From positions 1-39,099 of the forward strand of contig DATINN010000160.1 of NCBI GenBank assembly GCA_035474175.1: a stretch of 39,099 nucleotides of DNA, in the 5' to 3' direction. The DNA comes from Mycobacteriales bacterium. Lineage in GTDB: Bacteria > Actinomycetota > Actinomycetes > Mycobacteriales > CADCTP01. This document shows positions 10,562 to 34,836 of this stretch, in pieces. The position numbers and the translations under genes were made by a program. Under the pieces are notes generated by a model, which did not search any database, was not told the DNA's origin, and was given only the letters and a program-made list of their open reading frames with translations. How positions within the stretch are numbered: the stretch's first letter is position 1; every line of letters starts with the position of its first letter.

Positions 10562-11022
10562 CGGGTCCAGGTCGTCCTGCGCCGCCGGACGCCGTGCGGC
10601 CTCCGACGCGCGTTCGTCATCGACTCGCACCGGGACAGTCTCCTCGACACCGGCGGTCACCCGCGACCGCCCGGACGGTCACGGAACGCGGTGAGGCCGA
10701 GACCGCCTCTGTGGCTGTGAGTGGCTATCGGTAAGGTCCTTTCGGCCAGGTGGAGCAGTTACATGACATGCCCGGCCGTCCTGCGTCCGATGCACCAAGT
10801 CCCGACTACAGACAGTAACCAAATTGCCCTGACGGACAGTGTTCTCCGGCCGTCACGGGGATTTTCTTTCGAAGTCTTCACACTGCGTGACCTAAGCCGC
10901 TATGTTTGGCATCGCTTCTGGGGGGACCCGACGCACCGTCATCACGGTTCGCCGGGCCGGGGGCTTCTACGAAAGCTGGTCCGGCTGTGCGCCTGCACCG
11001 CCGGATGGGGGGTGGGGTGCGA
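10562..11022. promoter_or_regulatory. Divergent intergenic region (ppc <-> priming transferase) with lower GC; promoters presumed, not mapped
   Basis: About 360-460 nt without a GC3-biased ORF. There is a local GC drop around 10720-10900. It is flanked by divergently oriented starts. Confidence 0.35.
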
Positions 11023-12489
11023 ATGAGCGTCCTCGACCGGTCGCCCCGGTTCGTCGACGACGGGATCGGTGCGGGCGTTGCCCGGCGCCGGAGTTGGGAA
11101 CGTCGCTACGCGCGGCTGCTCGTCGGCTACGACGGGCTGGTCGGCATCGTCGCCGCTGTCGCGGCTTACACGCTCCGGTTCTCGGACGGCTCCTTCCGCT
11201 GGACGTACGGCTACGCCGTGGCCAGCTTCGCCGCCCCGGTCCTCTGGGTCTGCGCGGTCGCGCTGGCCGGCGGCTACGAGTCCCGGATCCTCGGCCTCGG
11301 GTCGGAGGAGTTCCAGCGGATCTTCCGGGCCTTCGTGGGCATGACCGCCACCGTCGGCTTCGTGTCGTACGCGTTGAAGGCGGACGTCGCCCGCGGCTAC
11401 ATCGTGCTGGCGCTGCCACTGGCCATGGTGCTGTCCTTCCTGGGGCACTACGCGGCCCGCAAACGGCTGCACCGCGGCCGCTCCCGCGGCCGCTTCACCT
11501 ACCGGGTGATCGCGGTCGGCGGCGAGGAGTCGGTCGCCGACCTGACCGCCCAGCTCCGGCAGGAGCGCTACGCGGGCATGCAGGTCGTCGGCGCGTGCCT
11601 GTCCTCCGGGGACGGCGCCCGGCTGGTCGGCCTGGGCGTGCCGCTGCTCGGCGGGCTGGACGACGTCGCCGACGCGGTCCGCGCCTCCAACGCCGACACC
11701 GTCGCGGTGGCCGCCGGCGCGAGCGTCGGACCGGCCCGGCTGCGCCGGCTGTCCTGGCAGCTGGAGGGCACCGACACCGACCTGGTGGTGGCGCCCGGCC
11801 TGATGGAGGTGGCCGGTCCGCGGCTGCACATCCGGCCGATGACCGGCCTGCCGCTGCTGCACGTGGAGGAGCCGGAGTTCGCCGGCGCCCGCCGGGTGGC
11901 GAAGGCGGTCGTGGACCGCTCGCTGGCCGTGTTCAGCGTGCTGATGTTCCTGCCGCTGATGATCGGCCTCTGGCTCGCCGTCCGGCTGAGCAGCCCCGGG
12001 CCGGCGGTGTTCAAGCAGACCCGCACCGGCCAGGACGGCCGCGAGTTCACCCTGCTGAAGTTCCGCTCCATGTACGTGGACGCGGAGAAGCGCAAGGCCG
12101 AGCTCGAGCACCGCAACGAGCGGGCCGAGGGGCTGCTGTTCAAGATCCGGGACGACCCGCGCGTCACCCCGGTCGGCCGCTTCCTCCGGCGTTACTCGCT
12201 CGACGAGCTGCCGCAGCTGATCAACGTCGTGCAGGGCAAGATGTCGCTGGTCGGCCCGCGCCCGCCGCTGCCGGCCGAGGTCGCGCTCTACCAGGACGAC
12301 GTCCGCCGCCGGCTGCTGGTCAAGCCCGGCCTGACCGGCCTCTGGCAGATCAGCGGGCGCAGCGACCTGGACTGGGACGAGTCCGTCCGGCTCGACCTGC
12401 GCTACGTGGAGAACTGGTCCTTCACCCTGGACCTGATGATCCTGTGGAAGACGATGTCCACCGTCGTCCGCGGCCGGGGCGCGTACTGA
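11023..12489 (+). CDS. Exopolysaccharide-type polyprenyl-phosphate sugar-phosphate transferase (WbaP/CpsE-like, Bac_transf domain), the priming enzyme
   Basis: ATG 11023 follows GGGGTGGGG. N-terminal TM helices and a central Rossmann-like segment (YRVIAVGGEESV...) precede the C-terminal PGPAVFKQTRTGQDGREFTLLKFRSM...LFKIRDDPRVTPVGRFLRRYSLDELPQLINVVQGKMSLVGPRPPLP...KPGLTGLWQISGRSDL. This is the classic bacterial sugar transferase domain. Confidence 0.9.
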   Translation: MSVLDRSPRFVDDGIGAGVARRRSWERRYARLLVGYDGLVGIVAAVAAYTLRFSDGSFRWTYGYAVASFAAPVLWVCAVALAGGYESRILGLGSEEFQRIFRAFVGMTATVGFVSYALKADVARGYIVLALPLAMVLSFLGHYAARKRLHRGRSRGRFTYRVIAVGGEESVADLTAQLRQERYAGMQVVGACLSSGDGARLVGLGVPLLGGLDDVADAVRASNADTVAVAAGASVGPARLRRLSWQLEGTDTDLVVAPGLMEVAGPRLHIRPMTGLPLLHVEEPEFAGARRVAKAVVDRSLAVFSVLMFLPLMIGLWLAVRLSSPGPAVFKQTRTGQDGREFTLLKFRSMYVDAEKRKAELEHRNERAEGLLFKIRDDPRVTPVGRFLRRYSLDELPQLINVVQGKMSLVGPRPPLPAEVALYQDDVRRRLLVKPGLTGLWQISGRSDLDWDESVRLDLRYVENWSFTLDLMILWKTMSTVVRGRGAY

Positions 12490-12578
12490 GCGCGTCCGCG
12501 TCCCGTTCGTCCCACCGGTCGGCTGGCAGGAGAATCCGGTCCCGGAAGAAATCCGAGACCGGAGAGGTAGACCTTCAC

Positions 12579-13325
12579 GTGGATGACGCCCTGCTGGCCG
12601 AGGAGCTGGCCGACCGGGCCGGCGCGCTGCTGCTCGGGCTGCGCGCCGGCGGCGCCGACGGCAAGACCGGCGACGCCGAGTCCGACCGGTTCCTGCTGGC
12701 CGAGCTGGCCGCGCGCCGGCCCGGCGACGCGGTGCTGTCCGAGGAGAGTCCCGACCCGGCCGCCCGGCACACCGCCGAGCGGGTCTGGATCGTCGACCCG
12801 CTGGACGGCACCCGCGAGTTCGGCGAGGCCGGCCGCACCGACTGGGCCGTGCACGTCGCGCTCTGGGTGTCCGGCGAGCTGGCCGCGGGCGCGGTCGCGC
12901 TGCCCGCGCTCGGCACGGTGCTCTCCTCCCGCACGCCGCCCGCGGTGCCGGCCCGGGACGGGGTCCGGCGGATCGCGGTCAGCCGCACCCGCCCGCCCGC
13001 CTGGGCCTACCCGGTGGCCGAGGAGCTGGGCGCCGAGCTGGTCGGGATGGGCTCGGCCGGGGCCAAGGTCGCGGCCGTGCTGCGCGGCGAGGTCGACGCC
13101 TACCTGCACGACGGCGGCCAGTACGAGTGGGACTCGGCCGCCCCGGTGGCCGTCGCGCACGCCGCCGGGCTGCACGCGAGCCACGTCGACGGGTTGCCGT
13201 TGGGTTATAACCGGCCCGATCCGTGGTCGCCCGATCTGCTCGTCTGCGACGCTGGGGTTGCGGACCGGATCGTGGGCCTGATCGGCCGGCACCGCACGAC
13301 CACCGAGGGAGCTCCATCGCGATGA
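12579..13325 (+). CDS. cysQ: 3'(2'),5'-bisphosphate nucleotidase (PAP phosphatase), inositol monophosphatase family
   Basis: This is the C-terminal part of track ORF 10902..13325. GTG 12579 is preceded by GGAGAGG (12561-12567). Motifs: SEES...VWIVDPLDGTREF (metal-binding E / DPxDGT) and YEWDSAAPVAVAHAAG (WD motif). The stop overlaps the cysD start as ATGA (13322-13325). Confidence 0.85.
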   Translation: MDDALLAEELADRAGALLLGLRAGGADGKTGDAESDRFLLAELAARRPGDAVLSEESPDPAARHTAERVWIVDPLDGTREFGEAGRTDWAVHVALWVSGELAAGAVALPALGTVLSSRTPPAVPARDGVRRIAVSRTRPPAWAYPVAEELGAELVGMGSAGAKVAAVLRGEVDAYLHDGGQYEWDSAAPVAVAHAAGLHASHVDGLPLGYNRPDPWSPDLLVCDAGVADRIVGLIGRHRTTTEGAPSR

Positions 13326-14233
13326 CCGAACCCCAGCGCTACCAGCTCAGCCAGCTGAGGACCCTCGAAGCCGAGGCCGTCTTCATCATGCGCGAGGTGG
13401 TGGCCGAGTTCGAGCGGCCGGTGCTGCTGTTCTCCGGCGGCAAGGACTCGATCGTCATGCTGCGGCTGGCGGAGAAGGCCTTCTACCCGGCCCGGATCCC
13501 GTTCCCGGTGATGCACGTCGACACCGGCCACAACTTCGCCGAGGTCCTCGCCTTCCGCGACGCCGCCGTCGAGCGGTTCGGGGTGCGACTGGTGGTGGCG
13601 AGCGTGCAGGAGGCCATCGACAACGGCACGGTCACCCAGCCGCCGGACGGCACCCGCAACCGGATCCAGACCCCGGTCCTGCTCGACGCGCTGGAGAAGC
13701 ACCGGTTCACCGCGATCTTCGGCGGCGCCCGCCGGGACGAGGACAAGGCCCGGGCCAAGGAGCGGATCTTCTCCTTCCGGGACGACTTCGGCCAGTGGGA
13801 CCCGAAGAACCAACGCCCGGAGCTGTGGAGCCTCTACAACGCCCGCATCCACGACGGCGAGAGCATCCGCGTCTTCCCGCTGTCCAACTGGACCGAGCTC
13901 GACATCTGGCAGTACATCGAGCAGGAGGGCATCGAGCTGCCCTCGATCTACTTCGCGCACGACCGCGAGGTCTTCTCCCGGCGCGGCATGCTCTTCGGCG
14001 TCCACCCGCACTGCCAGCCGCGGGCCGGCGAGGAGGTCGTGGTCCGGCGGGTGCGCTACCGGACCGTCGGCGACGCCAGCCTGACCGCGGCCGTCGAGTC
14101 CGACGCCGACACCGTGGCCAAGGTGATCGACGAGGTCGCCACCACCCGGATCACCGAGCGCGGCGCCACCCGGGGCGACGACAAGTTCAGCGAGGCCGCC
14201 ATGGAAGACCGCAAGCGTGAGGGCTACTTTTAG
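13322..14233 (+). CDS. cysD: Sulfate adenylyltransferase subunit 2
   Basis: MTEPQRYQLSQLRTLEAEAVFIMREV...LLFSGGKDSIVMLRLA (PP-loop SGGKDS)...FGGARRDEDKARAKERIFSFRD...and C-terminal MEDRKREGYF. This is a full-length CysD pattern. Confidence 0.95.
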   Translation: MTEPQRYQLSQLRTLEAEAVFIMREVVAEFERPVLLFSGGKDSIVMLRLAEKAFYPARIPFPVMHVDTGHNFAEVLAFRDAAVERFGVRLVVASVQEAIDNGTVTQPPDGTRNRIQTPVLLDALEKHRFTAIFGGARRDEDKARAKERIFSFRDDFGQWDPKNQRPELWSLYNARIHDGESIRVFPLSNWTELDIWQYIEQEGIELPSIYFAHDREVFSRRGMLFGVHPHCQPRAGEEVVVRRVRYRTVGDASLTAAVESDADTVAKVIDEVATTRITERGATRGDDKFSEAAMEDRKREGYF

Positions 14234-14397: not shown

Positions 14398-15645
14398 ATG
14401 GACATCCTTCGGTTCGCCACGGCCGGCTCGGTCGACGACGGCAAGAGCACGCTGATCGGCCGGCTCCTGTACGACACCAAGACCGTGTTCGCCGACCAGA
14501 TCGAGGCGGTCGAGCGGGTCAGCAAGGAGCGCGGCGACGAGCACGTCAACCTGGCGCTGCTGACCGACGGCCTGCGGGCCGAGCGCGAGCAGGGCATCAC
14601 GATCGACGTCGCGTACCGCTACTTCGCCACGCCCAAGCGCAAGTTCATCATCGCCGACACCCCGGGCCACATCCAGTACACCCGGAACATGGTCACCGGC
14701 GCCTCCACCGCCGACCTGGCCCTGATCCTGGTCGACGCCCGCAACGGGCTGGTCGAGCAGAGCCGGCGGCACGCGTTCCTGGCCACCCTGCTCGCGGTGC
14801 CGCACCTGGTGCTGTGCGTCAACAAGATGGACCTCGTCGGCTACGACCAGGCCGTCTACGACCGCATCCACGAGGAGTTCATCGCGTTCGCGACCAAGCT
14901 GCGGGTGCCGGACCTGACCGTGATCCCGGTGTCCGCGCTGCAGGGCGACAACGTGGTCACGCGCTCGGACAACATGCCCTGGTACGACGGGCCCAGCCTG
15001 CTGCACCACCTGGAAAACGTGCACGTCGCCAGCGACCGCAACCTGATCGACGTCCGCTTCCCCGTGCAGTACGTGATCCGGCCCCAGTCCGACGCCTGGC
15101 ACGACTACCGCGGCTACGCCGGGCAGGTCGCCGGTGGCGTGCTCAAGCCCGGCGACGACGTGATGGTGCTGCCCAGCGGGCTCACCACCCGGATCGCCTC
15201 GATCGACACGGCCGACGGCCCGGTCGAGGAGGCGTACGCGCCGATGTCGGTGACGGTGCGGCTGGAGGACAACCTCGACGTCTCCCGCGGCGACCTGATC
15301 TGCCGGCCGCACAACGCGCCCACGGTCACCCAGGACGTCGAGGCGATGGTCTGCTGGATGACCGACAAGCCGCTGCGGCCCGGGGCCAAGCTGGCGATCA
15401 AGCACACCACCCGCTCGGCCCGGGCCGTGGTCCGCGACCTGCGCTACCGGCTGGACGTCAACACGCTGCACCGGGACGAGGACGCGAGCGAGCTGACGCT
15501 CAACGACATCGGCCGGGTGAAGCTGCGCACGACGCAGCCGCTGTTCGCCGACGAATACCGCCGCAACCGCACCACCGGTGGGTTCATCCTCGTCGACGAG
15601 GCGACCAACGCCACCGCCGGCGCCGGGATGATCCTCGAGGGCTGA
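14398..15645 (+). CDS. cysN: Sulfate adenylyltransferase subunit 1 (GTPase), stand-alone with no APS-kinase domain
   Basis: MDILRFATAGSVDDGKSTLIGRLL (G1), IADTPGH (G3), VNKMD (G4) and EF-Tu-like domains II/III. It ends at GFILVDEATNATAGAGMILEG after 415 aa, so no CysC extension is present. The RBS GAGAGG lies upstream of ATG 14398. Confidence 0.95.
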   Translation: MDILRFATAGSVDDGKSTLIGRLLYDTKTVFADQIEAVERVSKERGDEHVNLALLTDGLRAEREQGITIDVAYRYFATPKRKFIIADTPGHIQYTRNMVTGASTADLALILVDARNGLVEQSRRHAFLATLLAVPHLVLCVNKMDLVGYDQAVYDRIHEEFIAFATKLRVPDLTVIPVSALQGDNVVTRSDNMPWYDGPSLLHHLENVHVASDRNLIDVRFPVQYVIRPQSDAWHDYRGYAGQVAGGVLKPGDDVMVLPSGLTTRIASIDTADGPVEEAYAPMSVTVRLEDNLDVSRGDLICRPHNAPTVTQDVEAMVCWMTDKPLRPGAKLAIKHTTRSARAVVRDLRYRLDVNTLHRDEDASELTLNDIGRVKLRTTQPLFADEYRRNRTTGGFILVDEATNATAGAGMILEG

Positions 15646-16069
15646 ACCCGTCTTTCCGGGCTTTCCGGGCTCCACCCGGTCGTGTGAATTTCGCCCCGCA
15701 GGGTGGGTCCGGAGCGTGACAGGGCATGTGGTATGCGTTGCGGCGGCTGGGCCGTGCGACCGTGCCCGCATCGTCCGGACGGCTCAACGTACACAGCGTT
15801 GTGGTACGCAGCGTTGCCTTCCGACCGCCACGAGATACTCAGGGTGACTCGTACGGTACTGAGCCGTGTCCTCCTTGTGACTGCGCGTGTAAGGGGCTAT
15901 GGTCCCGCAAGCCCTTCGGGAGACCCTCCCGTCGGGCTAGCCGTGACGATCACGGGGGTCGGTGCCCCCAAGATCCTCGCGGCGGACTGTGAACGTGAAC
16001 GACGCAACGTTGCGGCTCCTCTGCAACGCTCCGGAAAACCGGCGGACCTCCCGTCGGGAGAGGACACGG

Positions 16070-17641
16070 ATGCAGCACGGCTCCCGCCACAGACGCCCCG
16101 ACCTCCGTCGGGGGCGGACCGCCAAGGCGGTCGGCGCCACGGTCGCCGTCTCACTGGCAGTAGGTGTCGTCGCGGTGGTCACCGCCGGCGCCGCGGACAA
16201 GAATGCAGCTCCCACCAGCCTCTCGGTCTCCCCAGCCGAGGACACGTACGTCTACCAGGAGTATCCGGACCAGAACCGCGCCACCAGCACCAAGCTCACC
16301 GCGAGCAACCAGGACTCGCTGCACACCCGCAGCTACCTGCGCTTCGCCGTGAAGGGGGTGCCGGCGGGAGTCTCCGGGCTCACCGCCCACCTGACCTTCA
16401 CCTCCGACCGCAACCAGCCCGCGCTGGTCGAGCTGCACCGGGTCGCCTCGTCGGCCTGGAGCGCCGCCACCACGACGATGAAGAACGCGCCGGCGGTCGG
16501 CGAGACGGTCGCCACGGCCCGCCCCGCGGCCAAGCAGAAGACGCTCGACTTCGACCTGTCCCGGGTGGTCACCGCTGACGGCGACTACTCGTTCGCGCTG
16601 GTCGCCCCGCTGGCCGGCACCGTCTCGGCGGTCTACGCCTCCGAGCACGGCACCGACGGCCCCACGCTGGCGCTCAACTGGAGCGGCGACCCCGCCCCGG
16701 GCCGCCCCGGGCCGACCGCGCCCAACCCGAGCGCACCCGGCCTGCCGAGCATGTCGCCGGTGACGCCGTCGGCCTCGCCGACCAAGCCGGCCCCGACCAC
16801 GCCGGCGCCGACCAGCTCCTCCAACCCGGCGCCGCCGCCGTCCAACCCGTCCGGCGGCACCATGTTCGGCGCGACCGTGTGGACCGGCAGCGGCCTCAGC
16901 CAGGCCCAGGCGCTGGCCCAGGCCAACGCGCGCTACGGCAAGCTCGAGGTCGTCCGGGTGTTCTACCCCGGCCTCCCGCCGGCCTGGCCCGGCGCGGCCG
17001 GCACCAGCGGCGGCCCGGTCGTGGTCTCGTTCAAGGCCAACCCGAAGGACGTCCTGTCCGGCTCGCTGGACAGCCGGCTCGGCAGCTGGTTCGCCACCGC
17101 GCCCAAGGACCGCCAGGTCATCTGGTCCTACTACCACGAGCCCGAGGACGACATCGCCCGCGGATCGTTCAGCGCGGCGGACTACCGGTCGGCCTGGGCG
17201 CACCTGCGCCAGCTGGCCAACAAGGCCGGCAACCCGCAGCTGAAGTCCTCGCTGATCCTCATGGGCTGGAGCCTCAAGTCGGCCTGCGGTCGCAACCGGA
17301 AGGACTACTACCCGGGCTCCAGCGTGATCGACATCCTCGGGTGGGACGTCTACAACCTGATCTACAGCAAGGGCCAGTACAGCGACACCGCCTCGATCGT
17401 GGCGCCGGTCGTCGCCGCCTCCAAGGCCGAGGGCAAGCCGTGGGGCATCGCGGAGCTCGGGGCCAAGCTGGTGCCGGGTGACGACGGGACCCGCCGGGCG
17501 GCGTGGTTGACGTCGATGGGTGCGTACAGCAAGGCGAACGGTGCGCTGTACGTGACGTACTTCGATGCGCCTGTGGGTGGGGAGTTCCGGTTGTTGGATG
17601 CGCCTTCGCAGGCAGCGTGGCGATCGGTGATCGCCAGTTAG
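16070..17641 (+). CDS. Secreted protein: N-terminal DNRLRE-type domain, PT linker, C-terminal clan GH-A (GH26-like) glycoside hydrolase domain
   Basis: ATG 16070 follows GGGAGAGGA. Signal/TM: RRGRTAKAVGATVAVSLAVGVVAVVTAGA. PAEDTYVYQEYPDQNRATSTKLTASNQDSLHTRSYLRF resembles the DNRLRE domain. The PT linker is PTKPAPTTPAPTSSSNPAPPPSNPS. The TIM-barrel-like part has WSYYHEPEDD (acid/base Glu context) and KPWGIAELG (nucleophile Glu context). Confidence 0.8.
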   Translation: MQHGSRHRRPDLRRGRTAKAVGATVAVSLAVGVVAVVTAGAADKNAAPTSLSVSPAEDTYVYQEYPDQNRATSTKLTASNQDSLHTRSYLRFAVKGVPAGVSGLTAHLTFTSDRNQPALVELHRVASSAWSAATTTMKNAPAVGETVATARPAAKQKTLDFDLSRVVTADGDYSFALVAPLAGTVSAVYASEHGTDGPTLALNWSGDPAPGRPGPTAPNPSAPGLPSMSPVTPSASPTKPAPTTPAPTSSSNPAPPPSNPSGGTMFGATVWTGSGLSQAQALAQANARYGKLEVVRVFYPGLPPAWPGAAGTSGGPVVVSFKANPKDVLSGSLDSRLGSWFATAPKDRQVIWSYYHEPEDDIARGSFSAADYRSAWAHLRQLANKAGNPQLKSSLILMGWSLKSACGRNRKDYYPGSSVIDILGWDVYNLIYSKGQYSDTASIVAPVVAASKAEGKPWGIAELGAKLVPGDDGTRRAAWLTSMGAYSKANGALYVTYFDAPVGGEFRLLDAPSQAAWRSVIAS

Positions 17642-17770: not shown

Positions 17771-18679
17771 TTAGATCCCGCGCCCCCGGGAATTGAGCGT
17801 GCGAACGACCCGTTCGCCGGTCACCGCTCGGGACGCGACCGCGAGAGCGAGAACCGAGCGCGGCTCGGACGGCCGCAACCGGACCGTCCGCGCCGCCCAG
17901 CGCACTGCCTCGCGCCGGTGGCCGAGCGCCGCCTCCGCGAAGGCGATCTGGCCGGTGAGGCGCGCCGCCCCGACCGGCTCCTGGTAGAAGTCGGGATAGC
18001 TGTCCAGCAGACGCTGCAGCGCCTCCGACACCGTCGCCCAGCGCCCGGTGAAGTACGACTTCCGGTGCCACAGCACCTCGACGTACACGTCCGGCAGCGA
18101 CCGGATCGGCGCGACCTTCGCCGCCCGCAGCAGCAGCTCGTAGTCCTCGGCGTAGCTGCCCGGCAGCTCCTCGTCGACGAGCCCGATCTCCTCCAGCAGC
18201 GAGCGCTGGAACAGGAACGTCGACGGGTGCAGCTCGGTCAGCCGGTCCCGCAGCAGGTCCGCGAACGTGACCTGGCCGGCCGGCAGGGTGCGCGGCACCA
18301 CCTTGTCCCCGTACCGGACCTGGATGCCGCAGGACACGAACCGGGCCGCCGGGTCGGCGCGCAGCACCGCGACCTGGGCCGCCAGCTTGCCCGGCAGCCA
18401 GCGGTCGTCGTCGTCGCAGAACGCCACCAGCTCGGTGCCGGCCAGCTCGATGCCGGTGTTGCGGGTGCCGGCCAGGCCGGGGGAGCGGACGTTGCTGGTG
18501 ACCGTGACCCGGTCCCCGGCCAGCGCGGTGTCCGGCTCGGTGCCGTCGTGCACGATGACGCAGCGGACCTCGCCCGGGTAGTCCTGGGCCAGGACGGCCG
18601 CGACCGCGGTCCGCAGCAGCTCCGGCCGGTCCCGGGTCGGGATGACCACGGTCACCCCGGGCTGGGGCTGTCCGGTCAC
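17771..18679 (-). CDS. Family 2 glycosyltransferase
   Basis: This is the C-terminal part of track ORF 17771..20074. GTG 18679-18677 overlaps the upstream stop as GTGA (18676-18679). VTVVIPTRDRPELLRTAVAAVLAQDYPGEVRCVIVHDG...NTGIELAGTELVAFCDDDDRW (GT-A fold, DxD). Confidence 0.88.
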   Translation of the reverse strand: MTGQPQPGVTVVIPTRDRPELLRTAVAAVLAQDYPGEVRCVIVHDGTEPDTALAGDRVTVTSNVRSPGLAGTRNTGIELAGTELVAFCDDDDRWLPGKLAAQVAVLRADPAARFVSCGIQVRYGDKVVPRTLPAGQVTFADLLRDRLTELHPSTFLFQRSLLEEIGLVDEELPGSYAEDYELLLRAAKVAPIRSLPDVYVEVLWHRKSYFTGRWATVSEALQRLLDSYPDFYQEPVGAARLTGQIAFAEAALGHRREAVRWAARTVRLRPSEPRSVLALAVASRAVTGERVVRTLNSRGRGI

Positions 18680-20148
18680 TTCGGCCCCCGCACGGGGTAT
18701 CCGTAGCTGGCCAGCGGCCAGGCGGTCAGGGCCGAGACCTCCCGGCGGGCCCGGGACGGCATCTCCCGCTGCCAGGCGTCGTCGGCCCGCAGCGTCAGCC
18801 GCCCGGTGGAGAACCGCATCGGGTTGCCGCCGATCGTGTGGCTGGTCCCCAGCTCGGCGCTGTCGGAGCGGAGGAACCGCAGCGTCTCCTCGTCCGCCGG
18901 CAGCCCCAGGAAGGACAGCACCTCGCCCAGCACGCCGGCCGGCGAGGCCACCAGGTCCTCGTACCGGAAGCGGTGCACGGCGGTGCCGAGCCGGCCGAGC
19001 AGGTCGAAGAGCGTGTTGTTGGCCGTCCAGAGCAGGGCGGCCCGGGCCGGCGAGTAGCGCGGCATGTAGACGTCGCCCTCGGTGACCTCCGTGCGCCGCA
19101 CCGTCTTCGACCACGAGTACGCCACGCCGCGGCTGTCGCGGACCATGTGCAGCACCCGCAGGTCCAGGTCGGCCGCCCGCCGCAGCGCGAACGCCAGCGA
19201 CGCGTGCTTGCTCGCGTCGACCAGCACCGCGTCGCCGGTGACCTCGGCCACCCCGCGGTAGAGCCGCCGGTAGAGGTCGCAGTATTCGTCGACCGCGCGG
19301 GCGTGCTTGGCCGACGCGGCCGGGCCGGCCAGCCGGGGCACGTACCGGGTCCGGTCGACCGCGTCCTTCAGCGCCAGCACCTGCTCGACGTCGAGGGTGT
19401 CCCAGCCGCCGAAGGCGACCCGGCCGACCTCCTGCCAGTGCGGACAGCGGGAGAACGGCTCGCCGCAGCCGCAGCGCTCGTCGTCGCGCAGCCCGCGCTC
19501 CCACAGGTGCACGGACTCGCCGATCGCGGTCACGCCCGGGATCTCGGCCAGCATCCGCTCCAGCAGCGTGGAGCCGGACCGGCCGAAGCCGCCCAGGAAC
19601 GCGATCCGGGGCCGGGTCACGTCGGCCGGCGGCGGCACCGGGGTCGGCAGCAGCCCGTCGACCAGCACGCCGAGCCGGCGGGTGGTCTCGGCGGTGGCCG
19701 CCGGCACGGTCCCGGCCGGACCGCGCCCGGTCGCGGCCGCGGCCGCCAGCGCCGCCCGCAGGGTGGACTCGGTCTCGGCCAGCACGACCAGGCCGCTGGC
19801 CCCGAGCCGGCGGGAGAACTGCTGCTGGTGCTGGTCGACGTGCTCGTCCCGGGTCGGGTCGCGCGGCACCACGACCGGCAGGTGACCGGCCTTGCGGGCC
19901 TCGGAGATCGTGGCCGGGCCGCCGTGGCTCACGACCACGTCGGCGACGGCCAGCTCCGACTGCAGCTTGTTCCAGTCGAGGTAGGGCAGGCCGGCGGCGA
20001 CCTGCGGCGGCCGCGACGTGCCGAACTGCACCAGCACGTCGGCGCCGGTGTCGGCGGCCCAGCTGTCGATCCACCCGACGAGGCGGTCGAACCGGTGGAA
20101 GTCCGTCCCCACCAGCACGAGCACGCGGGGCGCGGTCCCTGTGCCCAT
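18676..20148 (-). CDS. Fusion protein: Alg13/PssE/Cps14G-like glycosyltransferase C-terminal-half domain (aa ~1-130) plus a Sulfotransfer_3-like sulfotransferase domain (aa ~180-490)
   Basis: ATG 20148-20146 is preceded by GGGAGG. N-terminal domain: RVLVLVGTDFHRFDRLVGWIDSW...VVVSHGGPATISEARKAGHLPVVVPRDPTRDEHVDQHQQQF (Glyco_tran_28_C / Alg13 pattern). An Ala/Pro linker follows. Then RIAFLGGFGRSGSTLLERML (5'-PSB-like loop), CGCGEPFSRCPHW and LRVLHMVRDSRGVAYS (3'-PB-like). Both domains are in one uninterrupted frame. Confidence 0.85.
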   Translation of the reverse strand: MGTGTAPRVLVLVGTDFHRFDRLVGWIDSWAADTGADVLVQFGTSRPPQVAAGLPYLDWNKLQSELAVADVVVSHGGPATISEARKAGHLPVVVPRDPTRDEHVDQHQQQFSRRLGASGLVVLAETESTLRAALAAAAATGRGPAGTVPAATAETTRRLGVLVDGLLPTPVPPPADVTRPRIAFLGGFGRSGSTLLERMLAEIPGVTAIGESVHLWERGLRDDERCGCGEPFSRCPHWQEVGRVAFGGWDTLDVEQVLALKDAVDRTRYVPRLAGPAASAKHARAVDEYCDLYRRLYRGVAEVTGDAVLVDASKHASLAFALRRAADLDLRVLHMVRDSRGVAYSWSKTVRRTEVTEGDVYMPRYSPARAALLWTANNTLFDLLGRLGTAVHRFRYEDLVASPAGVLGEVLSFLGLPADEETLRFLRSDSAELGTSHTIGGNPMRFSTGRLTLRADDAWQREMPSRARREVSALTAWPLASYGYPVRGPK

Positions 20149-20237
20149 CGGTTCGCCTCCCGGCTCGCTCCGCTCCTCGGGCGGTGGTAGCCCGGTGCCA
20201 TCCTGCGCAGCCCTGCGATGCTCACTCCCCGGTCGGC

Positions 20238-20741
20238 TCACAGCAGCGGCCCGACGACGACGGCACCGGGGTAGAACTTCTTCTGCTCTTCCCACTGCAC
20301 CAGGAACAGCCGGGTGAACGGCCGGCACAGCCGCCCGGTCAGCGTGGGCGAGTCGATGCGGTCGTACACCTCCAGATACACGGTCGGAATTCGCCGCAGC
20401 CAGGCCAGCACGAAGAACGGCACGGCCACACCGGCCCCGGTGGAAATCACCACCGACGGCTTTTCCTTGCGCAACAGACGGAATGCCAACCACAGGTTGC
20501 GAATCAGGTTGGGAATGTTGCGGGTCGTCGGGTAATAGGCCCACGTGGCGCGCTCGTCCATCAGCTGCGACTTGGCGTCCGCTGTGGGGAACGTCACCCA
20601 GGCCCGGTCCCGGTCGCCCCACCAGGACCGCAGCGCCAGCAGCTGGGCCAGGTGCCCGCCGCTCGACCCGACCAGCAACACCGGCCCGTCACCCCCCGGC
20701 AACCGGCGTGTTCCGTTCGCCGCCATTCCGGCAGCCCTCAT
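20238..20741 (-). CDS. Alg14/PssD/Cps14F-like membrane-anchoring half of a split glycosyltransferase
   Basis: ATG 20741-20739 is preceded by GGGGGAG (6-nt spacer). VLLVGSSGGHLAQLLALRSWW...NIPNLIRNLWLAFRLLRKEKPSVVISTGAGVAVPFFVLAWLRRIPTVYLEVYDRIDSPTLTGRL. It lies directly upstream of the Alg13-like gene. Confidence 0.85.
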   Translation of the reverse strand: MRAAGMAANGTRRLPGGDGPVLLVGSSGGHLAQLLALRSWWGDRDRAWVTFPTADAKSQLMDERATWAYYPTTRNIPNLIRNLWLAFRLLRKEKPSVVISTGAGVAVPFFVLAWLRRIPTVYLEVYDRIDSPTLTGRLCRPFTRLFLVQWEEQKKFYPGAVVVGPLL

Positions 20742-22059: not shown

Positions 22060-23871
22060 CTACTTGCGGTGCCGCCCCTTCCCTCTGACGTCGCCCGGGG
22101 TGGCTGCCGGCGCTGTCCCGGCCGGCGCCGGCGGTGGGGTCTTCTTCCCGCGGCCGCGGCGGAGCGCGCCGAAGGAGTCCAGCCGCAGCGGCCGGCGGAA
22201 CCGCCAGATCGCGGCCGCCCACAGCCCGGCCGCGACCACCGACGCGAGCAGCGCCCAGACCAGGTGGTCGCCGCCGAGCACCCGGGCCAGCGCCGCCGGC
22301 GGCAGCACGCACCCGAGGCAGATCAGCACGGCCAGCGTGCTGGAGCGGCCGAAGGGGTGCAGCCCGGTCGAGAGCAGCAGCTGCGTCAGCGGCACCAGGT
22401 TGGCGACGACGATCGCGATCGCCCAGCCCGTCGCCGCGCCCAGGATGCCCATCCGCGGGATCAGCACCAGGTCCAGGCCGACCTGCACGGCGAGCGCGAG
22501 CAGGGCGTTGCCGAGGTTCCAGGTGCTCCGGCCGGCCATCATCAGCACGATGTCGACCTGGCCGCAGGCCGTCGCCAGCAGCATCGCCGCGCAGAGCACG
22601 ACGACGACGTCGGTGGCGCTGGCGTACCGGGAGCCGAAGATGCCCAGCAGCGCGCTCGGGAACGCGCCCACGAGCAGGTAGAGCGGCCAGGTGGTGAGCA
22701 CCAGCCAGCCGGTGGTGGTCCGGTAGAGCAGGCCGGCCTCCTGCTTGTCGTCGCGGGCCAGGGCGGCCGACAACCGCGGTTGCAGCGCGATCGAGATGGC
22801 CTGGTTGCCGAGCTGGCCGACGACCAGGAAGCGGGTCGCCGCCGCGTAGAGCGCGGCCGGGGCCGGGCCGAGCAGCGCCACGACCAGCACCACGTCCAGC
22901 CGCTGCAGCGCGACCTGGGCCAGCAGGGTGAGCGCGCGGGGGGCGGTGAAGCGCCAGTACTGCCCGCGGTCGAAGCCGGAGTCCGGCGCGCCGGCCTTGG
23001 CCCGGCGCTCGGCCGCGAGCAGCCGCCGGGCCGGCAGCCAGGACAGCAGCGCGGCCGGCAGGTAGGGCAGGGTCCAGGCCAGCACCAGCAGCCCGACCTC
23101 GTGCGTCGCCGCGGCCAGCCCGATCAGCACCACCTGGGCCAGCGGCCGGGCGATCCGCTCGATCAGCACGGTCGTCCGCATCCGGCCGAAGCCGCGGGTC
23201 ACCGACTGCAGCACGTCCCCGACCGCGGCGAACGGCAGCGCCAGCCCGCACAGCCGCAGCACCAGCACCGCGTCGTCGGAGGCGCCACCGACGAACCGGT
23301 CGGCCAGCTGCGGGGCGAACAGCAGCAGCCCGAGCCCGAGCAGCCCGGAGGCGAGCAGGGTCGGCCGGATCGAGAGCCGGACGGCCCGGTCGATCTCGGC
23401 GGCGGAGCCCAGCACCCGCAGCCGGGGCAGGAAGTAGACCGCGCCGCCGTTGGTGCCGAGCCGGCCCAGCGTGGCCAGCAGCAGGAGCAGCGAGGTGATG
23501 GAGAAGAAGATGCCGGCGTCGGCGGTGCTCACCGCCCGGGCGACGACCACGGACAGCAACAGGTTGGCGACCGTGGTCACGGCGGCGCCGACCAGGTTCA
23601 CGCTGCCGCCGCGGGCGACGGCCTGCAGGCTGTCCCGCTTCGGCGCGGCCGCGCCGTCCGCCGCGGCTCCCGGGGCTCCCGCTCCGGCGTGGTCTCGCGC
23701 GGACGCGGCCACCGGCGGGGGAGCGATGCCGAGCCAGACCGTCGCCTCCGGGTCGGAGGGGTCCAGCTGCACCGTGGCCTCGGGATCGAAGCCGTTCAGC
23801 TGCACGGTCGCCTCCGGGTCGGAGGCGGAACGGTGCGGGCTGATCACGCCCCAGCCTGTCACACGGCCCAT
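22060..23871 (-). CDS. wzx: Wzx-type polysaccharide flippase (MOP superfamily), copy 2, with a repeat-containing cytoplasmic N-terminus
   Basis: ATG 23871-23869. Sequence upstream of it (23872-23973) has low GC3 and reads as intergenic. SLQAVARGGSVNLVGAAVTTVANLLLSVVVARAVSTADAGIFFSITSLLLLLATLGRLG... is followed by about 12-14 TM helices and a basic C-terminal tail. Confidence 0.85.
   Translation of the reverse strand: MGRVTGWGVISPHRSASDPEATVQLNGFDPEATVQLDPSDPEATVWLGIAPPPVAASARDHAGAGAPGAAADGAAAPKRDSLQAVARGGSVNLVGAAVTTVANLLLSVVVARAVSTADAGIFFSITSLLLLLATLGRLGTNGGAVYFLPRLRVLGSAAEIDRAVRLSIRPTLLASGLLGLGLLLFAPQLADRFVGGASDDAVLVLRLCGLALPFAAVGDVLQSVTRGFGRMRTTVLIERIARPLAQVVLIGLAAATHEVGLLVLAWTLPYLPAALLSWLPARRLLAAERRAKAGAPDSGFDRGQYWRFTAPRALTLLAQVALQRLDVVLVVALLGPAPAALYAAATRFLVVGQLGNQAISIALQPRLSAALARDDKQEAGLLYRTTTGWLVLTTWPLYLLVGAFPSALLGIFGSRYASATDVVVVLCAAMLLATACGQVDIVLMMAGRSTWNLGNALLALAVQVGLDLVLIPRMGILGAATGWAIAIVVANLVPLTQLLLSTGLHPFGRSSTLAVLICLGCVLPPAALARVLGGDHLVWALLASVVAAGLWAAAIWRFRRPLRLDSFGALRRGRGKKTPPPAPAGTAPAATPGDVRGKGRHRK
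23722..23820 (-). repeat. In-frame 3 x 33-nt tandem repeat encoding DPEATVQLNGF / DPEATVQLDPS / DPEATVWLGIA in the N-terminus of Wzx2
   Basis: Read directly: gacccggaggcgaccgtgcagctg..., gatcccgaggccacggtgcagctg..., gacccggaggcgacggtctggctc (minus strand). Confidence 0.85.
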
Positions 23872-24062
23872 GATCACCGCGCCCGTTCGCCGTATCGTCG
23901 GATCAACGCTTACATCGTTCCGGAACGTGTTCGAATTACTCCGGTTAGTGAACAAAGGATTTGTCAAGGCCACCTGTGACGCGGTGTCCGTCCACTAGGT
24001 TTGGCCGTGACTCGCTCGGACGTGCCCGTCGGCTCCCGAGCCTTTACTGGGGGAATTCAGAA
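23872..24062. promoter_or_regulatory. Divergent intergenic region (Wzx2 operon <-> propeller paralog 1); promoters presumed
   Basis: A low-GC stretch (cgtatcgtcggatcaacgcttacatcgttccggaacgtgttcgaattactccggttagtgaacaaaggatttgtcaagg) lies between divergent starts. It contains the TTACTC hexamer shared with the other two paralog leaders. Confidence 0.4.
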
Positions 24063-26993
24063 TTGTCTGGAAAGCGCTTCGTGTCCGCGGTCGCTGCGGC
24101 CGCCGTCACCCTCGCGGGCGTCACCGCCGCCTCGCTGTCGTTGTTCGTCGACCACGCCGGTGCCGTGAGCACCCAGCAGCCGAGCCTGGTCAGCGCCGTG
24201 CCGATGGCCGGCACGCCGAACATCACCGACGGCACGGTCCGCACGTTCGTGCAGGTCGGCAACAAGGTGTTCGTCGGCGGCAGCTTCACCTCGGCCACCC
24301 CGTCCGGCTCCGCCACCGCGGTCCCGCGGACGTACGTGCTGGCGGTCGACGCGGCCACCGGAGCCCTGGACACCGGGTTCGCCCCGACCCTCGACGGTGA
24401 GGTCGACGCCCTGCTGCCCGGGCCGACGCCCGGCAGCGTCTACCTCGGCGGCGCGTTCAACAACGTCAACGGCGTGAAGAGCAAGAGCCTGGCGCTGCTG
24501 GACGTCAACACCGGCCTGGCCGTGTCCGGCTTCAAGGCCCCGCCGATGAACGGCGTGATCAACGACCTGGCCATGGCCCAGGGCCGGCTGGTCCTGGCCG
24601 GCACGTTCACCACGCTCAACGTGAGCTCCCGGCCCGGCCTGGGCGCGCTCGCCCCGACCACCGGCGTGATCGACCCGAGCTTCATGACGATCGCGGTCGC
24701 CGGTCACCACAACTACCCGCACTTCAACTCGTCCGGGCGGCCGATCGGCGCGCAGGCCGCGGTCGGCGTCTCCAAGATCGACGTCACCCCGGACGGCAGC
24801 CGCATGGTGATGATCGGCAACTTCCTGACCGCGGCCGGCCTGGACCGCGACCAGATCGCGATGGTCAACCTGACCAGCACGACCGCGACGGTCGACCCCA
24901 ACTGGCGGACCGCGCGCTACACCGACGACTGCATCTTCAACGCGTACGACTCCTACATCCGCGACGTCGACTTCTCCGGTGACGGGGCCTACTTCGTCGT
25001 CGTCGCGACCGGCGGCCCGGCCGCCGGCTCGCTCTGCGACACCGCGGCCCGCTGGGAGACCAACGCCACCGGCACCGCGGTCCAGCCGACCTGGGTCGAC
25101 TTCACCGGCGGCGACACCCTGCTGTCCGTCGCGATCACCGGCACGGCCGTGTACGTGGGCGGTCACGAGCGCTGGATGAACAACTCCAACGGCCGCGACT
25201 CGGCCGGCGCCGGCGCGGTGCCGCGCCCGGGCGTGGCCGCGCTCGACCCGATCAACGGCATGCCGTTCTCCTGGAACCCGGGGCGCAACCCCCGCGGCGC
25301 CGGTGCCTACGCGGTCTACGCCAGCCCGACCGGCCTGTGGGTCGGCAGCGACACCGACTTCATCGGCGACTTCGCCTTCAAGCGCGGCAAGATGGCGTTC
25401 TTCCCGCTGGCCGGCGGGACCGCGGTCGGGCCCAACAGCACCGGCCGGCTGCCCGGCAACGTCATCGTCGGCTCGCCGGCGGCGGCCCCGACGACCGCGG
25501 TGTCCCTGGCGTACGACGGGACCACGGTGGGGGCGCCGGCGACGCTGCCGAGCAGCGGGCTGGACTGGAGCACGGTCCGGGGCGCGGTCATGGTCGACGG
25601 CAAGGTGTTCTACGGCTCGGCCACCGACAGCAACCTCTACTGGCGGACCTTCGACGGGACCACGCTGGGGGCGGCGAACCTGGTCGACCCGTACAACGAC
25701 CCGGCCTGGGCCACGGTGGACACCGGCTCGGGGCAGACGTACGTCGGCCGGAAGTCCGGGTTCTACGCGGAGATCCCGAGCGTGACGTCGGAGTTCTACA
25801 GCGGTGGCCGGCTCTACTACACGCTGTCCGGGCAGACGGCGATGTTCTACCGCTACTTCACGCCGCAGAGCGGGATCCTCGGCGCCGACCGGTTCACGGT
25901 CGCCGGCACCAGCAACTGGAGCGACACCGGCGGTATGTTCCTGAACGGCACCAACCTCTACCTCACCTCCCGCACCACCGGGACGCTGCGCCGGATCAGC
26001 TTCTCCGGCGGGGTGTTCGGGACGGCGTCGACGACGGTCAGCGGGCCGGCCGTGGACGGCCGGGACTGGCGCGGCAAGGCCGTGTTCCTGTCCACCGTCG
26101 GGCCCAACGCGGCGCCGCTGGCGGCCTTCACGACCAGCTGCGGCGGGTTGAGCTGCACCGTCGACGGCACCTCGTCCTCCGACCCGGACGGCACGGTCAC
26201 CTCCTACGCCTGGAACTTCGGGGACGGCACGAGCGGGACCGGGGCCACGGCCACCCACGCGTACGGGGCGGCCGGGACGTACTCGATCACGCTGACCGTG
26301 ACCGACAACCGGGGCGGGACCAACGCGACCACCCGGTCCGTCACGGTCTCGGTGCCGACGACGGCGATCGCGTTCCGCGGCGCGGCCAACAGCAACGTCA
26401 ACGCGACCACGGCGGCGGTCACCGTGCCGGCGGCCGTGCGGGCCGGTGACGCGCTGGTGCTGACCGCGACGGTCAACTCCGACACCGTGACGGTGAGCGA
26501 CCCGGCCGGGTGGGCCCGGCTGGACCGGGCCAGCACGACCGGGATCCAGACTCTCGTGTGGAGCAAGGTCGCCGCCGCGTCCGACGCGTCCTCGGCGCCG
26601 AGCATCACGCTCGGCGGGACGGTGAAGACGTCGCTGACCGTGGCGGCGTGGTCGGGGACGGCCGCGAGCGTGCCGGTGGCGTCGTTCGCACACGGCGTCG
26701 ACACGGTGACGACGGCGTCGCACACGACGCCGGCCGCGACCGTGGTCACGCCGGGCAGCTGGGTCGTGTCGTACTGGGCGGACAAGTCCTCGAGCACGAC
26801 GGCGTGGACGGCTCCGGCCGGTCAGACCGTGCGCAACGTGTCGCTCGGCACCGCGGCCGGCCGCGTGACGTCGCTGCTCACCGACGCCGGGGCGCCGACC
26901 GCGCCCGGGGCGGCCGGCGGGCTGACGGCGACCACCGACGTCGCCGGCACCAAGGCGACGACGCTGACGCTGGTGCTCGCACCGGCCTCCTGA
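24063..26993 (+). CDS. Large secreted protein, paralog 1: beta-propeller (delta-60/DUF5122-like repeats), second repeat module, PKD domain, unknown C-terminal domain
   Basis: The likely start is TTG 24063 after GGGGGAA, giving (M)SGKRFVSAVAAAAVTLAGVTAASLSLFVDHAGA as a signal peptide; GTG 24081 and the track start 23961 are alternatives. Repeats: VFVGGSFTS.../VYLGGAFNNVNGVKSKSLALLDVNTG.../LVLAGTFTTLN. PKD: CTVDGTSSSDPDGTVTSYAWNFGDGTSGTGATATHAYGAAGTYSITLTVTDNRGG. The C-terminus ends in LVLAPAS. Confidence 0.85.
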   Translation: MSGKRFVSAVAAAAVTLAGVTAASLSLFVDHAGAVSTQQPSLVSAVPMAGTPNITDGTVRTFVQVGNKVFVGGSFTSATPSGSATAVPRTYVLAVDAATGALDTGFAPTLDGEVDALLPGPTPGSVYLGGAFNNVNGVKSKSLALLDVNTGLAVSGFKAPPMNGVINDLAMAQGRLVLAGTFTTLNVSSRPGLGALAPTTGVIDPSFMTIAVAGHHNYPHFNSSGRPIGAQAAVGVSKIDVTPDGSRMVMIGNFLTAAGLDRDQIAMVNLTSTTATVDPNWRTARYTDDCIFNAYDSYIRDVDFSGDGAYFVVVATGGPAAGSLCDTAARWETNATGTAVQPTWVDFTGGDTLLSVAITGTAVYVGGHERWMNNSNGRDSAGAGAVPRPGVAALDPINGMPFSWNPGRNPRGAGAYAVYASPTGLWVGSDTDFIGDFAFKRGKMAFFPLAGGTAVGPNSTGRLPGNVIVGSPAAAPTTAVSLAYDGTTVGAPATLPSSGLDWSTVRGAVMVDGKVFYGSATDSNLYWRTFDGTTLGAANLVDPYNDPAWATVDTGSGQTYVGRKSGFYAEIPSVTSEFYSGGRLYYTLSGQTAMFYRYFTPQSGILGADRFTVAGTSNWSDTGGMFLNGTNLYLTSRTTGTLRRISFSGGVFGTASTTVSGPAVDGRDWRGKAVFLSTVGPNAAPLAAFTTSCGGLSCTVDGTSSSDPDGTVTSYAWNFGDGTSGTGATATHAYGAAGTYSITLTVTDNRGGTNATTRSVTVSVPTTAIAFRGAANSNVNATTAAVTVPAAVRAGDALVLTATVNSDTVTVSDPAGWARLDRASTTGIQTLVWSKVAAASDASSAPSITLGGTVKTSLTVAAWSGTAASVPVASFAHGVDTVTTASHTTPAATVVTPGSWVVSYWADKSSSTTAWTAPAGQTVRNVSLGTAAGRVTSLLTDAGAPTAPGAAGGLTATTDVAGTKATTLTLVLAPAS

Positions 26994-33580: not shown

Positions 33581-33783
33581 TGTTCCCCCTCGTAGGCCCC
33601 GGCCGCGCGCGCCGCGCGGCTCAGGTGCGATCTCCCGGCGACGTCCCCCGCAGCCGGTCCGCGCCAACGTTAGTCCGTACGGCGGTCGACCACGGCGTGA
33701 TTGCCAAGAATCGTGGTTCGGCCACTCGACCGGAGGGTGAGGGTAGGCTCCCCTCCTTACCGGGCGGTCGATCAGGAGCACGA
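33581..33783. promoter_or_regulatory. Divergent intergenic region (wzc operon <-> GT14/paralog 2 unit); promoters presumed
   Basis: About 200 nt between divergent starts with no GC3-biased ORF. Confidence 0.35.
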
Positions 33784-34704: not shown

Positions 34705-34836
34705 TTGGTTACTCAGCAATGCGTGTTCACTCACAGTTGCCAATTTCGGCTCCGGGCCGTCATCAACCCTCGTATTCTTCCTCTCACTGATCGGACGGGG
34801 GCGGCGTCGCCATCCGCCGAGTTCCTTGGGGGGAAT

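Follow-up and report, generated by a model that had tools for sequence, protein, structure and literature searches.

How is the addition of sulfate tied to the assembly of a bacterial polysaccharide, and can a glycosyltransferase and a sulfotransferase (ST) work on it as parts of one polypeptide? In PMC11641403, the sugar and the step targeted by bacterial polysaccharide STs are explicitly described as largely unknown. The question is raised here by a 39,099 nt stretch of DNA, in the following called the window, which comprises positions 1 to 39,099 of contig DATINN010000160.1 in a metagenome-assembled genome (MAG) of a Mycobacteriales bacterium (assembly GCA_035474175.1). A preliminary description, made from the letters of the window alone, had reported a single open reading frame (ORF) at 18676–20148 in which an Alg13/PssE/Cps14G-type glycosyltransferase (GT) half is fused to an ST domain, next to a gene for an Alg14-like partner. 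We find this fusion to be, on comparative grounds, a genuine and evolutionarily conserved protein that is predicted to be bifunctional. It probably belongs to a Wzx/Wzy/Wzz-dependent exopolysaccharide (EPS) pathway, in which it would join glycosyl transfer to the tethered sulfation of an undecaprenyl-diphosphate (Und-PP)-linked glycan, dependent on 3'-phosphoadenosine-5'-phosphosulfate (PAPS).

Two domains in one conserved frame

The ORF, both domains, the conservation of their motifs and the synteny are directly established, and so is the way in which the fused and the split state are distributed. On the minus strand, 18676–20148 translates without a stop into 490 codons followed by TGA, and all motifs quoted in the preliminary description are present. 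The start codon ATG at 20148 is preceded by a Shine-Dalgarno sequence (GGGAGG, 8 nt 5' of it). A frame plot of the G+C content at third codon positions (GC3) yields a single continuous coding frame over 18661–20221 in this contig of 70–79% G+C. The linker region (19560–19780), where a frameshift or stop might have separated two genes, is free of N, of long homopolymers and of stops. Both halves score above the Pfam gathering cut-offs, Glyco_tran_28_C with aa 9–137 (E 3.2e-12, 47.2 bits, cut-off 22) and Sulfotransfer_3 with aa 184–420 (E 3.4e-13, 50.8 bits, cut-off 27). An AlphaFold2 model of the fusion, built on an alignment of 108 homologues (mean predicted local distance difference test score, pLDDT, 91.9; predicted template modelling score, pTM, 0.69), has two well-folded domains, with a separate helix (150–164) set between linkers of low pLDDT. 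A hydropathy scan of the protein gave no hydrophobic segment of the transmembrane (TM) type, and no solved chain covered both domains together in Foldseek.

The fusion is not confined to this assembly. The same pairing of Pfam domains recurs in more than 100 protein clusters (90% identity level) which are 46–90% identical to the fusion, and about 35 representatives of a library clustered at the 50% level carry it in full. RefSeq proteins with this architecture come from the cultured Catellatospora tritici, C. coxensis and C. bangladeshensis. From a genome scan with one genome per species, 585 relatives were obtained, the best 80 of which were used for locus counts and synteny. At least 42 out of these 80 loci, from independent assemblies, have an uninterrupted in-frame Alg13-ST ORF; the number is a lower bound, as four loci (L028, L030, L035, L080) were scored "not fused" owing to paralogous STs or to frameshifted long-read MAGs. 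The fused loci belong to five species of Catellatospora and to MAGs of Jiangellales, Nanopelagicales, Mycobacteriales and many Acidimicrobiales. The fused state is found in Actinomycetes as well as in Acidimicrobiia, and still in members with only about 40% identity. The linkers of the more remote members vary both in length and in sequence, with the frame kept.

Residues were compared in two sets, the 108 full-length homologues (46–90% identity) and 95 ST sequences of any linkage state. Judged by its motifs, the C-terminal part qualifies as a true ST domain, with an intact 5'-phosphosulfate-binding (PSB) loop, 3'-phosphate-binding (3'-PB) motif and candidate catalytic Glu. In the PSB loop, R190, S191 and G192 are present in 95/95 ST sequences and T194 in 94/95 (one T194S). 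G210 and E211 are invariant, the latter again in 95/95; by analogy with the Glu of TPST, E211 is the candidate catalytic base. R337 of the 3'-PB motif is invariant, S345 is found in 86/95, and H437 is near-invariant (one gap). All 95 sequences, whether fused, split, free-standing or paralogous, share C226, C228, C235 and W238 of the pattern CxCGxxFxxC(P)xW, which may form a metal site and lies outside the regions that the profile search aligned to TPST or olefin-synthase ST chains. Among the 108 homologues, the invariant or nearly invariant positions of the ST half are G187, G189, R190, S191, G192, T194, G210, E211, H214, C226, C228, C235, W238, S313, K314, H315, R337 and D338. Kept without exception are, among these, R190, S191, G192, T194, G210, E211, C226, C228, C235, K314, R337 and D338. 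The family profile, when compared with PDB chains, matched the olefin-synthase ST 4gox (E 2.7e-11), TPST1/2 and the CurM ST 4gbm. In Foldseek the ST part matched TPST1 (5wrj, E 7e-8, TM-target 0.60) and the CurM ST (4gbm, E 4e-7), and furthermore OLS ST, Stf9 and 3-OST.

The domain proper of the GT half, the C-terminal half of a GT-B enzyme, spans aa 8–140. G14, T15, D16, H18, H75, G76 and G77 are invariant in the 108 homologues, and P78, A79, T80, E83, E102, H103, D105, H107 and Q108 nearly so. The conserved motifs HGGPAT(I)xE and EHVDxHQ include what we take to be the UDP-sugar-binding residues of GT28-type C-domains such as those of MurG and Alg13 (HGGPATxxE and DxHQ). This part of the profile matched MurG and yeast Alg13 among PDB chains, and UGT/GT1 C-domains in Foldseek. 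The match extends almost to the end of MurG (7d1i, residues 255–364 of 365), and we therefore interpret helix 150–167 as the crossover helix found at the C-terminus of GT-B enzymes. On this interpretation, the helix should dock the GT half onto the Alg14-like half. An equivalent helix is the last element of the separate Alg13 proteins of Micromonospora (see below). Thirteen residues (aa 168–180), a stretch whose length and sequence vary from relative to relative, then lead to the ST domain.

The Alg14-like ORF begins the supposed pair immediately upstream, as had been stated, at a distance of 90 nt. It matches Pfam Alg14 (E 6.7e-13) and passes the NCBIfam profile PssD/Cps14F (118 bits, cut-off 110). 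In every fused or split locus with sufficient contig reach such a gene lies directly upstream (gap -12 to +101 nt). Its description as a membrane anchor does not hold: the protein opens directly with a Rossmann strand (VLLVGSSGGH), and its sole hydrophobic window (>1.6), aa 95–116, is part of the Rossmann core. The two proteins align to consecutive parts of the WelK profile (319 positions), the Alg14-like one to 2–155 and the GT half of the fusion to 167–308, with 77 and 59 bits. By this alignment, the Alg14-like protein and the GT half together make up one complete GT-B enzyme, presumably as a heterodimer. PssD/PssE, Cps14F/Cps14G and Alg14/Alg13 are expected to add the second sugar to a polyprenyl-diphosphate sugar.

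Predicted role and competing explanations

The fusion is surrounded by an exopolysaccharide cluster of the Wzx/Wzy/Wzz type, which includes cysQ-cysD-cysN and another ST unrelated to the fused one (Table 1). The GTG start of the GT2 gene (18679–18677) overlaps the TGA of the fusion (18678–18676) as GTGA, which implies translational coupling. When the window proteins were compared with the 80 loci by tblastn, the gene order Alg14, Alg13-ST, GT2 was found to be conserved and most other cluster genes to co-occur with this trio. In the predicted pathway, the priming phosphoglycosyltransferase would form Und-PP-hexose, to which the Alg14-like/Alg13-like heterodimer would add a second sugar at the cytoplasmic face; the tethered ST would then sulfate the nascent Und-PP-oligosaccharide with PAPS. 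The latter would be supplied by the clustered CysD/CysN and an adenosine-5'-phosphosulfate (APS) kinase encoded elsewhere in the genome, and the released 3'-phosphoadenosine-5'-phosphate (PAP) would be cleared by the CysQ-like enzyme. The translationally coupled GT2 would extend the unit, the second ST would place further sulfate on it, and after flipping by Wzx it would be polymerised by Wzy/Wzz. Since PAPS is cytoplasmic, sulfation before flipping is nearly forced, and since the cluster carries genes of the PAPS pathway, one would most naturally assume that the lipid-linked intermediate is sulfated in the cytoplasm. What we infer here are the donor and acceptor sugars, the order of the reactions and any kinetic coupling of glycosyl and sulfuryl transfer.

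Several observations weigh against this role of the fusion. The pTM of the model leaves the relative orientation of the two domains undefined. The closest solved ST structures belong to enzymes that sulfate protein tyrosines or polyketides rather than carbohydrates. The GT half reaches 58.8 bits with the NCBIfam profile PssE, whose equivalog cut-off is 120, and with PssE and WelK scores so far under the cut-offs for equivalogs, the profiles do not point to a particular donor sugar. In the hydropathy scan no N-terminal TM helix was found in the Alg14-like protein; therefore, its association with the membrane, and with it the recruitment of the pair, would be peripheral, as in MurG, or mediated by partners. 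A P-loop motif scan and a tblastn search with an approximate E. coli CysC sequence detected no APS kinase in the window. As the CysN of the window is also devoid of a kinase domain, the PAPS source of this MAG must lie outside the contig. A cysC beside the homologous cluster was seen only in L005 (13039–13569), L008 (13296–13859) and partly L013, in the first two between the GT2 gene and cysN. Finally, the existence of split and free-standing forms makes the covalent link optional and weakens the case for obligatory coupling, and fusions of the ST to GT2 make its closest functional partner ambiguous.

These last points also feed the strongest competing explanation. It accepts both domains as active and regards their link as a product of drift, arisen by a one-base frame change at a GTGA overlap, so that the ST would act independently on some sugar of the repeat unit, and not necessarily on what the Alg13/14-type transferase has made. 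In 17 out of 17 Micromonospora loci, including the complete chromosome NZ_CP108775.1, the Alg13-type half and the ST are indeed adjacent genes in different frames. The Alg13 gene ends (...VARRVRQRxGGxRR-stop) just past the docking helix, and its stop overlaps the ST start as GTGA or ATGA exactly at the junction, where the fused proteins have their variable linker. In a rough neighbour-joining (NJ) tree of ST domains (BLOSUM distances, without support values), the clade with split genes lies in the midst of fused ones; the tree was used only for this nesting, which suggests a secondary fission. Furthermore, a separate clade has free-standing STs with 52–56% identity, mostly in the order ST-GT2-WecG and with WecG/GT26 in place of the Alg13/14 pair; it includes Actinocatenispora, Thermomonospora, Actinoallomurus and Streptosporangiaceae. 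In one locus of Kineosporiaceae (L052), ST, Alg14 and Alg13 are each free-standing genes. The ST is alternatively joined to GT2, either alone (P0172), together with NTP_transf_5 (NTP_transf_5-ST-GT2, P0196) or in triple fusions Alg13-ST-GT2 (P0131, P0140). Covalent linkage is thus optional, and the fusion is real and long-lived. The retention of the fused state from Actinomycetes to Acidimicrobiia at such low identity, with a linker that is short, speaks against mere drift. So do the repeated fusions of the ST to either flanking GT, a classic signature of physically interacting partners and the usual sign of enzymes working together. We therefore regard a neutral fusion as rather unlikely and prefer the bifunctional, sulfate-adding protein. 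We propose that it arose by merger of two adjacent, translationally coupled genes and represents one of several interchangeable linkage states.

Two proteins of 630–665 aa (P0042, P0044) have two ST-like stretches and may be tandem STs. One locus labelled as a Verrucomicrobiales MAG (L054, JBLIMK010000017.1) has its fused ST in the Acidimicrobiales clade of the NJ tree, with unchanged synteny; it is probably a mis-binned contig or a recent transfer.

According to a second explanation, the ST does not act on a glycan but is a TPST/RaxST-like tyrosine ST, a small-molecule ST or a non-catalytic PAPS/PAP-binding regulator of the GT. The top structural and profile matches could be quoted in its favour, as they are TPST1/2 and the STs embedded in polyketide synthases or olefin synthases (CurM, OLS), with carbohydrate STs not near the top. 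Against it stand the invariant candidate catalytic Glu, PSB loop and 3'-PB motif. The gene is always located between glycosyltransferase genes in Wzx/Wzy clusters which carry PAPS genes, and the ST is fused only to GT domains, once also with the uncharacterised NTP_transf_5; a candidate gene for a peptide substrate was not seen in these clusters. A non-glycan role thus appears very improbable. An assembly or sequencing artefact, by which an indel in the linker would have merged two genes of the source MAG, could appeal to the split state in Micromonospora, to the single base that interconverts both states and to frameshift-like breaks in some long-read MAG loci (L004, L080), but it is effectively refuted by the uninterrupted loci, among them isolate genomes of the five Catellatospora species, by the 108 full-length homologous protein clusters, and by divergent linkers that stay in frame together with the continuous GC3 frame.

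A further-reaching version of the preferred pathway may be put forward tentatively and is itself doubtful: Alg14, Alg13-ST and GT2 could constitute an obligatorily channelled glyco-sulfo module, in which the Und-PP-disaccharide is sulfated upon formation and GT2 accepts only the sulfated form. If this were true, the position of the sulfate would be fixed in a widespread family of sulfated EPS made by Actinomycetota of the soil, among them Catellatospora, Micromonospora and Acidimicrobiales, and the Alg13-ST, ST-GT2 and Alg13-ST-GT2 fusions would be snapshots of a single multi-enzyme complex.

Neighbouring genes

The positions of the fusion, its elements and the surrounding genes are collected in Table 1.

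Table 1. The fusion ORF, its elements and the genes around it, with positions in the window and the basis of each assignment.
Feature	Residues (aa)	Position	Strand	Basis or remark
Fusion ORF (GT-B C-half, docking helix, linker, sulfotransferase)	490 + TGA	18676..20148	-	Pfam, GC3
PssE/Cps14G/Alg13-type nucleotide-sugar-binding half (Glyco_tran_28_C)	1–140	19729..20148	-	Pfam, NCBIfam PssE and WelK, alignments, PDB profile, Foldseek
Conserved helix RxGxLVDxL	150–167	19648..19701	-	AlphaFold2, MurG alignment, end of split Micromonospora proteins
Pro-rich interdomain linker PTPVPPPADVTRP	168–180 (13 residues)	19609..19647	-	Alignment
PAPS-type sulfotransferase domain (Sulfotransfer_3; TPST/CurM-ST-like fold)	181–490	18679..19608	-	Pfam, PDB profile, Foldseek
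5'-Phosphosulfate-binding loop GGFGRSGSTL	186–195	19564..19593	-	Alignments
E211 codon, candidate catalytic base	211	19516..19518	-	Aligned with Glu of TPST1 GEET motif
Cys cluster CGCGEPFSRCPHW	226–238	19435..19473	-	Alignments
3'-Phosphate-binding motif HMVRDSRGVAYSW	334–346	19111..19149	-	Alignments
PssD/Cps14F/Alg14-type N-half of split GT-B enzyme	167 in all	20238..20741	-	Pfam Alg14, NCBIfam PssD
GT2 glycosyltransferase		17771..18679	-	Pfam; directly downstream of fusion in nearly all related loci
Priming polyprenyl-phosphate glycosylphosphotransferase (Bac_transf; TIGR03025 EPS_sugtrans)		10906..12489	+	Profile matches
CysQ-like 3'(2'),5'-bisphosphate nucleotidase (PAP removal)		12486..13325	+	Below equivalog cut-off
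CysD, sulfate adenylyltransferase subunit 2		13223..14233	+	Mechanical ORF; true start probably ~100 nt later
CysN, sulfate adenylyltransferase subunit 1, without APS-kinase domain		14398..15645	+	Profile matches
CBM96 + GH26-like secreted protein		15962..17641	+	Pfam, synteny
GH26-like protein, signal-anchor segment		20884..22020	-	Weak Pfam match below cut-off; conserved synteny
Wzx flippase (Polysacc_synt/MatE)		22060..23973	-	Pfam
Large PKD-domain protein		23961..26993		Weak beta-propeller (Rax2-like) match; between Wzx gene and second sulfotransferase
Second sulfotransferase (Sulfotransfer_1-like)		27169..~28081	-	Start approximate
Protein-kinase-like/APH-fold protein		28062..29300	-	Conserved beside second sulfotransferase; cf. 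WpsI
Putative Wzy polymerase		29249..30661	-	11 hydrophobic segments, no Pfam match
DUF3048 protein		30669..31661	-	
Wzz/PCP chain-length determinant		31667..33781	-	
Very large PKD-domain protein, malectin domain		34705..38226		Weak Rax2-like match

The second ST belongs, as judged from its sequence, to a different family from the fused one; the idea that both are paralogues was rejected, as BLASTP gave E 0.39 and the common region was the 3'-PB motif only. The kinase-like gene adjoins the second ST in nearly all loci, and its product could phosphorylate sugars or have a regulatory role. Both GH26-like genes are conserved in the cluster, with Pfam GH26 scores below the cut-off. The PKD-domain proteins which flank the export genes may bind or process the polysaccharide.

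Many of the related loci (L001, L004, L006, L026, L056, L059, L061, L080) have one or two paralogous ST genes upstream of the Alg14-like gene on the opposite strand. These are 39–43% identical to the fused ST domain and have no counterpart in the window. At 1423–7601 the window carries a second glycopolymer set with Polysacc_synt_3 (Wzx-like), WecB epimerase, WecC-type dehydrogenase, WecG/TagA GT26 and a 407-aa protein, which suggests a polymer containing N-acetylmannosamine or its uronic acid (ManNAc(A)). A gene for phosphoenolpyruvate carboxylase (7784–10660) is located between this set and the sulfated-EPS cluster.

Relation to known systems

The architecture had been thought to be undescribed. 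This stands for the literature, as our search returned no paper on an Alg13/PssE-type half fused to an ST, but not for the databases, in which the fusion is common and its entries are automatically annotated as "glycosyltransferase", "sulfotransferase" or "ALG13 subunit". Both domains and the type of cluster are already known, and the fusion is not a new enzymatic principle. Its value lies in the handle that it offers on the acceptor specificity of bacterial polysaccharide STs: a natural fusion of an ST to one defined glycosyltransferase step leads to a testable acceptor hypothesis, the Und-PP-disaccharide. The two proteins make a compact system for reconstitution in vitro, with natural split (Micromonospora) and triple-fused forms as controls and with Catellatospora and Micromonospora as cultivable carriers. 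Furthermore, the fusion can serve as a marker of the predicted sulfated-EPS pathway, which is widespread in Actinomycetota and bears on the biology of soil biofilms and on the microbial production of sulfated glycans.

With PssD/PssE of Rhizobium leguminosarum, Cps14F/Cps14G of Streptococcus pneumoniae and the eukaryotic Alg14/Alg13, the window pair shares the separate N-half, the adjacency of the genes, the motifs HGG(x)xT...E and DxHQ of the C-half and a predicted C-terminal helix following it. It differs in the 310-residue ST which the C-half bears after the docking helix and, compared with yeast Alg14, in the missing N-terminal TM helix. The single-chain beta-1,4-glucuronosyltransferases of sphingan synthesis (WelK/GelK/SpsK) correspond to both window proteins jointly. 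However, the window enzyme is split over two genes, whose products with 77 and 59 bits fall far short of the WelK equivalog cut-off (400 bits), and WelK has no ST.

The STs of CurM (4gbm), of the Synechococcus olefin synthase (4gox) and of TPST1/2 resemble the window ST in the PSB loop, the 3'-PB motif and the Glu after the PSB strand, and the CurM ST is likewise embedded in a larger assembly-line protein. The acceptors of these enzymes are, however, beta-hydroxyacyl groups on acyl carrier protein (ACP) or protein tyrosine, and identity is only 17–22%.

In Wzx/Wzy systems generally, according to the study on synechan, the repeat unit is assembled and modified on its lipid linker at the cytoplasmic face (PMC8205485). 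PAPS and ST genes within a polysaccharide cluster are named as a hallmark of sulfated polysaccharide synthesis in PMC11641403. Clusters for sulfated capsular polysaccharides (CPS) are known from marine Vibrio and Cobetia (PMC11641403, PMC11766843), and the Vibrio cluster carries genes for PAPS supply. Like the window, these clusters and the synechan cluster xss of Synechocystis (PMC8205485) hold ST and glycosyltransferase genes together. In the passages of these reports that were searched, the STs are separate proteins and a GT-ST fusion is not mentioned; the organisms belong to other phyla, and the Vibrio CPS cluster has an ABC transporter where the window has Wzx/Wzy.

The closest described system is by its gene content the wps-1 cluster (WpsA-K) of Actinoplanes missouriensis, published in 2026, with GT2, ST WpsB, GT26 WpsC, GH26, Wzx, ST WpsH, kinase-like WpsI, Wzy and Wzz (PMC13390465). 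It is needed for sporangium formation; a sulfated EPS was predicted as its product, with sulfation unverified, and the presence of a GH26 enzyme in a Wzx/Wzy cluster was remarked on (PMC13390465). Going by the published description, the window agrees with it in Wzx/Wzy/Wzz, GT2, GH26 and the kinase-like protein, as well as in having two STs from separate families, and the order of ST, kinase-like gene and Wzy is the same. No methyltransferase (compare WpsF) or DUF4262 (compare WpsD) was present among the window ORFs scanned, the only GT26 of the window (5398–6450) is part of the separate cluster, and the 80 best loci included none from Actinoplanes. The ST-GT2-WecG loci of the free-standing clade look similar to wps-1. 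There, WpsB (AMIS_7290) is a free-standing protein beside a GT26 and an Alg13/Alg14 pair is not reported (PMC13390465), whereas the ST of the window forms one polypeptide with the Alg13-type half.

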